Below, piece by piece: positions 26,581 through 27,706 of a stretch of 64,000 bases of DNA (positions within the stretch are counted from its first letter, which is position 1; every line of letters begins with the position of its first letter). Below the pieces are notes generated by a model. That model made no database searches and was not told the DNA's origin. It was given only the letters and a program-made list of their open reading frames with translations. Origin of the DNA: Escherichia phage ESCO13. A program made the position numbers and the translations under genes. The stretch lies in the sequence record NC_047770.1. One strand, given 5' to 3'.

Positions 26581-26853
26581 ACACAACATTAAGAGCACTG
26601 TGATTGATCGTCGTATCCTGTGCACAAGGTCTGCTCGAAAGACAGTGTTCTTAGTATTGTGTTGATCACAAAAAGAGTCACCCGAAACTTGACCGGAGTA
26701 GGGTTGGATGGGGCAAAATGAGAAGCGGCTCTCCCATCGACAGCAACGAAGAATAATATTTGACTTTGGTTTTGTATTATTTTAAGTTAGCTTACCGAAC
26801 GTAGGGCTAGTCACCCAACGGGATACTCGTCACTGTCCCAATCAATAAAAGTC

Positions 26854-26883
26854 TTGACAACAAATAGTAAAATGTAGTATAGT
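26854..26883 (+). promoter_or_regulatory. Candidate internal promoter (TTGACA-18-TATAGT)
   Basis: TTGACAACAAA box then TATAGT, 12 nt before tRNA-Gly. Confidence 0.4.
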
Positions 26884-26894
26884 AAATATATATG

Positions 26895-26968
26895 GCGTTC
26901 TTGGTGTAGCGGTAGCATTCCGTCCTTCCAAGTCGGCGGCACGAGTTCGATCCTCGTAGAACGCTCCA
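26895..26968 (+). tRNA. tRNA-Gly (anticodon TCC)
   Basis: Acceptor GCGTTCT/AGAACGC, anticodon loop CTTCCAA, T-loop TTCGATC, encoded CCA. Confidence 0.75.
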
Positions 26969-27066
26969 AATTATTTAATAAAGGGTTGCCAGAAAACTTT
27001 CTCTTTTACTCATGGTTTTCTCCTTCTCTCACACTTCTTCTGGTTGCCCTTCATTAAATGATTTAT

Positions 27067-27142
27067 TGGTTTGTAGTGTAGTCCGGTAGCACACGACACT
27101 TTGACTGTCGTAGGTTTGGTTCAAATCCAGACAGACCAGCCA
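27067..27142 (+). tRNA. tRNA-Gln (anticodon TTG)
   Basis: Anticodon arm CGACA-CTTTGAC-TGTCG; T-loop TTCAAAT; encoded CCA. Confidence 0.8.
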
Positions 27143-27235
27143 TATAACAAAGGTGAGTCACTACCTTAAGTGTGAAGTTAAAAACGAGGAGCCGCCGAAC
27201 ACTTTCTTTTGCGGTGTACCTTTAGAATGTTATCA

Positions 27236-27312
27236 CGGGACGTAGCACAGCTTGGTAGTGCGCTCGCTTTGGGAGCGAGAGGTCGAGTGTTCGAATCACT
27301 CCGTCCCGACCA
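27236..27312 (+). tRNA. tRNA-Pro (anticodon TGG)
   Basis: Anticodon arm CTCGC-TTTGGGA-GCGAG; T-loop TTCGAAT; encoded CCA. Confidence 0.85.
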
Positions 27313-27318
27313 ATTAAA

Positions 27319-27392
27319 TGTTTCGTAGTTCAATGGTAGAACCCACGACTGATAATCGTGAGACACAAGTTCGATTCTTGTCGAAACAACCA
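27319..27392 (+). tRNA. tRNA-Ile (anticodon GAT)
   Basis: D-arm GTTC-AATGGTA-GAAC, anticodon arm CACGA-CTGATAA-TCGTG, encoded CCA. Confidence 0.85.
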
Positions 27393-27394
27393 GT

Positions 27395-27464
27395 TTCCCG
27401 TTAGACTTACAGGATAAGAGTTCCACAGCTTATTGTGATGCTGGTTCGAATCCAGCACGGGATA
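27395..27464 (+). ncRNA. tRNA-like element with truncated anticodon arm
   Basis: Acceptor with 1-72 T.T mismatch, normal D- and T-arms, but only 16 nt where anticodon arm plus variable loop need about 21; no encoded CCA. Confidence 0.4.
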
Positions 27465-27470
27465 CATAAT

Positions 27471-27549
27471 AGCGGGATAGAGGAGTCTGGTCGTCCTCGC
27501 CAGTTTCATATGCTGGAGATCATCGGTTCAAATCCGATTCCCGCCTCCA
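27471..27549 (+). tRNA. tRNA with anticodon CAT, initiator-like features
   Basis: Anticodon loop TTCATAT; A1.C72 mismatch at acceptor end and A11:U24 pair; T-arm ATCGG-TTCAAAT-CCGAT resembles E. coli tRNA-fMet; encoded CCA. Confidence 0.7.
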
Positions 27550-27664: not shown

Positions 27665-27687
27665 AGCCTCCTTATTGGAGGCTTTTT
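27665..27687 (+). terminator. Rho-independent terminator closing the tRNA cluster
   Basis: 7-bp stem AGCCTCC/GGAGGCT with 5-nt loop followed by TTTT. Confidence 0.7.
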
Positions 27688-27706
27688 GCTATCTATTGAA
27701 TAAAAC

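Follow-up and report, generated by a model that had tools for sequence, protein, structure and literature searches.

The half of a tRNA that is formed by the acceptor stem, T arm, and elbow is the part read by most tRNA-binding proteins and by RNase P. The stable RNAs C and D (species 1 and 2) of phage T4, whose function is unexplained, are small RNAs that lie among the T4 tRNA genes and are matured with them. The SegB paper makes no mention of the T4 stable RNAs. mascRNA and menRNA, which derive from MALAT1 and MEN-beta (RF01684), are tRNA-shaped RNAs with a reduced arm that lacks an anticodon, are produced by tRNA-processing enzymes, and carry a CCA end, as is well established (see also PMC11693755). 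Part of the current understanding of phage tRNA genes is that they counteract bacterial immunity that cleaves tRNAs. The idea that RNAs from phage tRNA clusters act as decoys or supplements against tRNA-cleaving defences is present in the literature, and recent work shows that such RNAs do counter these defences (PMC13096335, PMC10264068, PMC11555353).

Here we analyzed a 64,000-nt stretch of Escherichia phage ESCO13 (NC_047770.1), hereafter the window, which is 100% identical to Escherichia phage vB_EcoM-Ro121c4YLVW (Stephanstirmvirinae, Phapecoctavirus). A 70-nt tRNA-like element lies inside its tRNA cluster. The element is non-decoding, with a hairpin that has no conserved anticodon. Comparative sequence evidence leads us to favor, with moderate confidence, the reading that it is the gene for a small non-decoding tRNA-like RNA, one of a discrete family in the tRNA clusters of virulent enterobacterial phages, and we propose that this RNA is a trans-acting mimic. 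We found no description of the family in the literature.

Location and putative expression of the element

Ten tRNAs were called by ARAGORN at 25537–27549. The element (27395–27464) starts 2 nt past the CCA of tRNA-Ile and ends 6 nt before tRNA-Met, and the coordinates of these neighbors confirm the earlier note, which had placed it between tRNA-Ile and a CAT tRNA. The 78 bases that separate the Ile and Met genes carry no annotation in the database records that were opened. The neighbors and candidate transcription signals are as follows.

27319–27392, plus strand: tRNA-Ile(GAT), upstream neighbor (ARAGORN; Rfam, 72.2 bits)
27471–27549, plus strand: tRNA-Met(CAT), downstream neighbor (ARAGORN; Rfam, 50 bits)
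26854–26883, plus strand: sigma-70-like promoter TTGACA-18-TATAGT upstream of tRNA-Gly (consensus match only, 11/12)
about 27665–27690, plus strand: intrinsic terminator-like hairpin with a T tract at the end of the tRNA unit (from the sequence; a terminator is annotated at the equivalent site in phage ASO2A)

These features suggest that a single transcript, Gly-Gln-Pro-Ile-element-Met, likely begins at the promoter-like site, which would give the element a plausible expression context.

Several other features of the cluster were recorded. The downstream tRNA-Met(CAT) has an A1·C72 mismatch and a discriminator U, is labelled tRNA-Pseudo-CAT in phage phAPEC8, and shows a compensatory C:G to T:A change in its T stem within Phapecoctavirus. 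Two further tRNAs were missed by ARAGORN: one at 25923–26009 (35.7 bits against the Rfam tRNA-Sec model), labelled tRNA-Ser(TGA) in phage ASO2A, and one at 26235–26319 (39 bits against the Rfam tRNA model), labelled tRNA-Tyr(GTA) in other records. Because ARAGORN misses these two genes, the published tRNA counts for Phapecoctavirus differ (10–13).

The Gln-Pro spacer (27143–27235) is missing in phages ESCO37 and ESCO25, where the two genes are 5 nt apart, and contains an extra tRNA-Pro in vB_EcoM_01; these differences indicate a cassette-like turnover inside the cluster. The Gly-Gln spacer (26969–27066) folds into a long imperfect hairpin with a minimum free energy (MFE) of −24.2 kcal/mol and a z-score of −5.2 (0 of 200 shuffles were as stable), and with 2% variable columns in 12 Phapecoctavirus genomes it is more conserved than some tRNAs. 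The 130-nt spacer between tRNA-Ser and the tRNA-Tyr-like gene (26105–26234) has a predicted multibranched fold with an 11-bp closing stem (MFE −34.1 kcal/mol, z-score −3.2) and may be another structured RNA. A stretch that resembles it, as judged by eye without an alignment, is present in the Vequintavirinae phage A7_1 (locus positions about 1200–1315).

Architecture of the 70-nt element

The element is composed of the following parts.

27395–27401, plus strand: 5′ strand of the acceptor stem, TTCCCGT, with T27395 mismatched opposite T27463
27402–27420, plus strand: U8-A9 (TA), then the D arm GACTT-ACAGGAT-AAGAG (27404–27420), read from the sequence
27421–27423, plus strand: 3-nt linker TTC (family consensus N-C-C)
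27424–27437, plus strand: short hairpin CACAG-CTTA-TTGTG in the place of the anticodon arm (14 nt; 5 bp including one G·U pair; tetraloop)
27438–27439, plus strand: 2-nt linker AT in the place of the variable loop, read from the sequence
27440–27456, plus strand: T arm GCTGG-TTCGAAT-CCAGC (5-bp stem, 7-nt loop of the T-Psi-C type)
27457–27464, plus strand: 3′ strand of the acceptor stem, ACGGGAT, and discriminator A (no encoded CCA; CAT comes next)

The acceptor stem has seven positions, which form six Watson-Crick pairs and the T·T mismatch at 1:72. This mismatch and the normal T arm had both been described in the earlier note and are present as described. The same note had regarded the D arm as normal, which is incorrect: only three inner Watson-Crick pairs (C:G, T:A, and T:A) form, shifted inward, and the outer positions are A·A and G·G. 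The G18G19 dinucleotide is kept, in a 7-nt loop.

Between the linker and the T arm there are, as had been pointed out, only 16 nt (the 14-nt hairpin and AT) where a tRNA needs about 21. The 4-bp CACA/TGTG stem with a 6-nt loop, previously proposed as the best local pairing, is also the minimum-energy fold of this hairpin. Addition of the G27428·T27433 pair, which is A-U in relatives, gives 5 bp and a CUUA tetraloop. The fold z-score of the element is −2.58, which, together with its scores under the tRNA and family models given below, sets it apart from a chance sequence. The Phapecoctavirus hairpin is the weakest in the family (−3.0 kcal/mol). With its 1:72 mismatch, the loss of two D-stem pairs, the weakest hairpin, and no CCA, the Phapecoctavirus copy is the most eroded member of the family.

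A protein-coding reading was also considered. The open reading frames that overlap the element are all at most 82 amino acids long, and it was rejected because each of them also crosses bona fide tRNA genes. The hypothetical-protein labels placed over the element in some records are taken as spurious.

Tests against tRNA models

ARAGORN with default settings did not call the element, and a 2.5-kb search with the Rfam tRNA model gave no match to it at E ≤ 10. When 81 nt were searched in isolation, the same model scored 24.6 bits (E = 0.0013), below its gathering threshold of 29 bits, and the alignment left the whole anticodon arm as an unaligned insertion. A canonical cloverleaf, which the earlier note had said would overturn its reading, is thus not recovered by the covariance model. 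Among the homologues described below, the scores of the Rfam tRNA model form a gradient, with 42.8 bits for the Gamaleyavirus type, 33.3 bits for phage SABI, 27.9 bits for 05F01, and 24.6 bits for phiEB49; the score of the window copy (24.6 bits) was obtained in the isolated 81-nt search only, and the copies of KP8, A7_1, and UPEC06 gave no match.

Relaxed ARAGORN settings could force a cloverleaf, and the isotypes were Ser(gct), Asn(att), and Leu(caa) for near-identical Phapecoctavirus copies. Elsewhere in the family, the same settings produced "anticodons" of 2 or 4 nt, or "Stop(tta)" for the SABI type. The forced cloverleaf was rejected on account of its mismatched anticodon stems and inconsistent isotypes. 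A 5-bp anticodon stem with a 7-nt loop (U33, anticodon, R37) is not present; its place is taken by the 14-nt hairpin of 4–5 bp with a 4–6-nt loop. The variable region between this hairpin and the T stem is AT, or 2 nt, as against a threshold of at least 4 nt. With its 4–6 nt, the loop of the window copy is unable to display an anticodon. The element matches none of the Rfam families; among them, the models of known tRNA mimics (mascRNA, YrlA, tmRNA, and others) gave no match overlapping 27395–27464 at E ≤ 10.

Homologues in enterobacterial phages

BLAST searches located the element at 94–100% identity in at least 69 Phapecoctavirus-type records (coverage of at least 80%). Homologues with 80–84% identity are present in the Vequintavirinae phages A7_1, A73, W70, UPEC06, and LTH01. 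The Drexlerviridae phage phiEB49 has a homologue with 77% identity, in which a 7-nt loop is possible and which is annotated as tRNA-Val(AAC). Further homologues were found in the Klebsiella phages 05F01 (Stephanstirmvirinae, 147 kb) and NDO71, and in Schitoviridae: KP8 (annotated as tRNA-Leu), SABI, and about 20 Gamaleyavirus records (often tRNA-OTHER). SABI is a 76-kb phage whose record carries no lineage. All of the phages that bear a homologue infect Enterobacteriaceae, and each copy resides within a tRNA cluster. Its neighbors vary with the lineage: Ile and Met; Tyr and an ORF; Arg and an ORF; or Gln and non-tRNA sequence. In the 1.07-kb tRNA locus of phiEB49 that was examined, only one true tRNA is found, beside the element.

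Members of the family are either left without annotation or given mutually inconsistent database labels (tRNA-Val, tRNA-Leu, tRNA-Thr, and tRNA-OTHER), and these missing or wrong labels distort tRNA counts and arguments on codon usage. The records MG065650.1 (Campylobacter phage B15), OP562383.1 (Acinetobacter phage vB_AbaM_ABPW7), and OR584014.1 (Pseudomonas phage PsgM04F) contain a Phapecoctavirus-typical cluster or element with 79–100% identity, and their host labels look doubtful.

No intact orthologue, with a canonical anticodon arm, was found among about 130 genomes. In close relatives, where the earlier note had named an intact tRNA as grounds for abandoning its reading, none occurs at the position of the element. 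The comparison across related genomes that had been proposed there shows that the non-canonical layout is common to all homologues found.

A BLAST search with the element in 5,426 complete E. coli genomes gave no match, and no host or prophage source was found. When the family motif was run over species genomes of bacteria and archaea (185,579 in all), five matches came up, none of them family-like; this motif contained TAGGCTTA, so that copies with TAGACTTA, the window copy among them, would escape it. In IMG/VR, a scan with the pattern AGGATAAGA...GGTTCGAATCC returned, beyond Phapecoctavirus and phiEB49 contigs, only unrelated tRNA-like or coding matches. A looser scan (CTTA...AAG...GGTTCGAATCC) gave no new family members and was swamped by ordinary tRNAs with GCTTA/TAAGC D arms.

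The looser IMG/VR scan exposed other tRNA-like sequences with truncated arms, in contigs L091/L107, L096/L196, L146, and L149. They have a good T arm and a truncated middle hairpin, and a perfect 7-bp acceptor stem is present in the ones that were checked (L091/L107 and L149). Examples are the hairpin CCCCA-GCT-TGGGG and the middle region of L091/L107, which is 16 nt long. These sequences suggest that anticodon-less tRNA look-alikes may be a general phage feature. Downstream of the tRNA clusters of KP8 (locus positions 1655–1757) and of a Gamaleyavirus contig (L034, 2085–2233), the permuted tmRNA model also matched weakly, at about 33 bits against a threshold of 47.

Conserved architecture and covariation

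The layout is the same in all members of the family. The acceptor stem (7 bp) and U8-A9 are followed by a D arm, in which C:G, U:A, and U:A pairs and G18G19 are invariant, and by a linker of 3 nt that usually reads N-C-C. Next come a hairpin whose closing C:G pair never varies, the 2-nt linker A-Y, and a standard T arm. In an alignment of 21 sequences, the inner D-stem pairs are invariant (21/21) and the outer two are mostly unpaired, being formed only in the Gamaleyavirus and SABI-type members. Invariants specific to the family are a G·A in the D stem, the CC linker, and the C:G pair at the base of the hairpin. The middle hairpin is 13–19 nt long across the family and has a loop of 3 to 9 nt, as listed below.

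Window: 5 bp and a 4-nt loop
A7_1 and UPEC06: 7 bp and a 3-nt loop
KP8: 7 bp and a 4-nt loop
phiEB49: bulged stem and a 3- or 7-nt loop
SABI and 05F01: 5 bp and a 9-nt loop
Gamaleyavirus: 5 bp and a 6-nt loop

The 9-nt loop, RACUUAAGA, is kept in SABI, 05F01, and the metagenomic relative L031 while its stem covaries (G:C to A:U), and comparison of these sequences suggests that it may have a function of its own in the SABI/05F01 sub-branch. A CCA is encoded in most other lineages and is absent in the window copy. Because the acceptor sequence and the discriminator (A, G, or C) vary between lineages, no single aminoacyl-tRNA synthetase or acceptor-specific partner is implied.

A covariance model (R1) was built from 15 members, and true tRNAs over 467 kb were used for comparison. 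The members scored 66.9–86 bits, and true tRNAs at most 43 bits. The score of the window copy, 80.8 bits, is partly circular because its sequence is in the seed alignment; members outside the seed (L055, L049, L076, L022, L036, L039, L037, L035, and L042) scored 72.6–86 bits. The window has a second tRNA-like element at 26422–26499 (fold z-score, −3.8). Its acceptor stem is 7 bp long with one G·U pair, the loop of its T arm has 8 nt, its middle hairpin is long and interrupted, and a clear D stem is lacking. This element scored only 23.7 bits under R1, and its membership in the family was rejected.

Covariation was assessed in the model-based alignment of 21 sequences, with shuffles and slid partners as controls. 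Standard pairs occupy 90% of the cells, as against 76% in the shuffles, and 11 of the 21 pairs have changed on both sides and are still paired. The covariation score is 0.363, compared with 0.137 in the shuffles (0 of 500 reach it) and at most 0.10 with slid partners. Six of the seven acceptor pairs covary; the T stem is 100% paired, with two of five pairs covarying; and the middle hairpin is 92% paired, with three of five covarying. A MAFFT alignment and RNAalifold independently gave the same picture. These comparisons indicate that the helices are kept by compensatory substitutions across four phage families and that the RNA structure is selected. A canonical anticodon arm is found in none of the members, which makes the non-canonical layout ancestral to the family.

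Variation within Phapecoctavirus

All 12 of the Phapecoctavirus tRNA clusters that were aligned contain the element, and several genomes that keep it have the Gln-Pro spacer absent or replaced. Six variable columns and the indels are confined to the D, T, and hairpin loops, the linkers, position 72, and the G·U/A-U pair, and no Watson-Crick stem pair is broken by substitution within the genus. The sequence of the hairpin loop changes even among near-identical genomes. Two lesions were seen: G19 is replaced by A in ev052, and the T loop has a 1-nt insertion in ESCO25. The proportion of variable columns is 8.6% in the element, 1.4% in tRNA-Ile, and 5.1% in tRNA-Met, figures that are qualitative only because rearranged Pro and spacer regions distort the table. 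These sequences show signs of a looser constraint on the element within the genus than on the neighboring tRNAs.

Possible roles of the element

The earlier note had left two readings, a decaying tRNA pseudogene or a deliberate tRNA mimic. Of these, the mimic fits the sequence evidence, and the pseudogene is contradicted by it, because all relatives found have the same layout, no intact orthologue exists among them, and compensatory substitutions have kept the stems. The element is thus probably a working tRNA mimic rather than a dying gene. The tRNA shape has been kept and decoding has been given up, which excludes supplementing translation and indicates that the fold is used in another way, for instance for mimicry, sequestration, or control of processing. 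We favor a mimic or decoy that acts in trans because the half of the tRNA read by proteins and the family-specific invariants are kept while the hairpin drifts.

On the basis of established tRNA biology, the promoter at 26854 would drive a transcript that includes the element together with Gly-Gln-Pro-Ile and Met. RNase P would cut at 27395, where U is at position −1 and the elbow nucleotides are intact, and its cut at the downstream tRNA-Met would free the 3′ side. Exonucleases would then trim CAUAAU, and the host CCA-adding enzyme would finish the end, giving a stable RNA about 73 nt in length, L-shaped but short in its lower arm. Speculatively, this RNA could act in trans through its acceptor/T-arm/elbow half by occupying a tRNA-binding factor, with the hairpin as a structural strut only. 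The most likely target, also speculative, would be a defence enzyme with which the host attacks tRNAs, and the RNA would be its decoy or competitor; alternatively, the target could be a tRNA-handling protein of the phage or the host. Against such a role count the high abundance that decoys normally need and the erosion of the Phapecoctavirus copy.

The conservation of the acceptor stem, T arm, and elbow could equally be explained by a role in cis in precursor processing. The element would then be a processing or stability module whose fold is kept for RNase P and 3′ exonucleases acting on the polycistronic precursor, and once freed the RNA would do nothing of its own. RNase P is known to recognize the parts that are conserved, namely the acceptor, the T arm, the G18G19 elbow, the U at −1, and the RCCA that many copies encode. 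In phiEB49, A7_1, KP8, and SABI, moreover, no further tRNA-like unit follows the element in its run, which suits protection of a 3′ end. We nevertheless regard this explanation as unlikely: the neighbors differ in every lineage, so that no specific partner depends on the element; adjacent tRNAs are processed without such spacers, Pro and Ile being just 6 nt apart; and the family-specific invariants given above, from the D-stem G·A to the C:G pair of the hairpin, are conserved although RNase P does not need them. Still less probable is an aminoacylated non-decoding RNA, charged independently of an anticodon, that would donate its amino acid or bind the ribosome or EF-Tu and modulate translation. 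Most lineages do encode a discriminator and CCA, and a Levitt-type 15:48 pair, in an alignment read by eye, covaries between A:U (SABI and L077) and G:C (05F01 and L034), which argues for a full L-shape. However, the discriminator and the pairs 1:72 to 3:70 vary, there is no G3:U70, long variable arm, or G−1, and the window copy is mismatched at 1:72 and lacks CCA.

We give somewhat less credence again to a decaying pseudogene that hitch-hikes in a mobile tRNA cassette. The window copy falls under tRNA thresholds and is mismatched both at 1:72 and in the D stem, lesions occur in the ev052 and ESCO25 copies, and the element evolves faster than the flanking tRNAs. However, the derived architecture is common to four phage families, so that the non-canonical state is ancestral, and more than half of the pairs have changed on both sides with pairing retained and no intact orthologue in the genomes searched. 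The stems are also not eroding at the rate of the loops, their Watson-Crick pairs are intact in the genus, and there is no patchy loss among the 12 clusters. The least credible of the explanations is an unusual functional decoder, such as a tRNA for suppression or frameshifting whose anticodon loop departs from the standard form. The conserved loop of SABI, L031, and 05F01 on its covarying stem, in which relaxed ARAGORN reads the anticodon UUA as "Stop" (ochre suppressor-like), would suit it, as would the 7-nt loop of phiEB49 and its tRNA-Val(AAC) annotation. However, loops of 4–6 nt (window), 3 nt (A7_1), and 4 nt (KP8) occur, the loop size excludes decoding for the window copy, and the variation of the loop among near-identical Phapecoctavirus genomes leaves no conserved anticodon.

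The trans-acting mimic has a more specific form that we consider possible but rather doubtful: the family may be widespread, previously undescribed RNA anti-defence factors that bind, neutralize, or soak up host tRNA-targeting immune nucleases, or that hijack another tRNA-binding host factor. If so, the fast-evolving hairpin would reflect an arms race, and the other truncated-arm tRNA-like sequences in viral metagenome contigs would represent the same strategy. The family occurs in phages studied for therapy (Phapecoctavirus, Gamaleyavirus, and KP8-like Klebsiella phages).

Comparison with known systems

The element shares with canonical tRNAs (RF00005) the 7-position acceptor stem, U8-A9, G18G19, the T arm with its TTCGAAT loop, the discriminator, and the location in a tRNA cluster. 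Unlike them, it lacks the 5-bp stem and 7-nt anticodon loop, has a 3-nt linker between the D arm and the hairpin instead of one nucleotide (position 26), has a "variable loop" of 2 nt, and has a D stem of effectively five positions with internal mismatches. The element is tRNA-derived, yet it fails as a tRNA in the anticodon arm, the variable loop, and the score thresholds. The best-scoring true tRNA under R1 is tRNA-Arg(CCT) of phiEB49 (43 bits), which has the D loop ACAGGATAA and the T arm GCTGGTTCGAxTCCAG in common with the coliphage members. It differs from the element in its canonical anticodon arm (CCT) and D stem, and the shared sequences suggest that it may reflect the ancestral tRNA type of the family.

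The T4 RNAs C and D resemble the element as small stable RNAs of a tRNA cluster, but they are longer and are not known to be homologous to it. The tRNA-like domains of YrlA and tmRNA also mimic the acceptor stem, T arm, and elbow without a decoding anticodon; unlike the element, they are parts of larger RNAs, with a Ro-binding stem in the former and an mRNA-like domain and G3:U70 in the latter. The likeness to mascRNA and menRNA is a functional analogy only: these RNAs are eukaryotic and have no sequence relationship to the element, and the Rfam mascRNA model gave no match to it.
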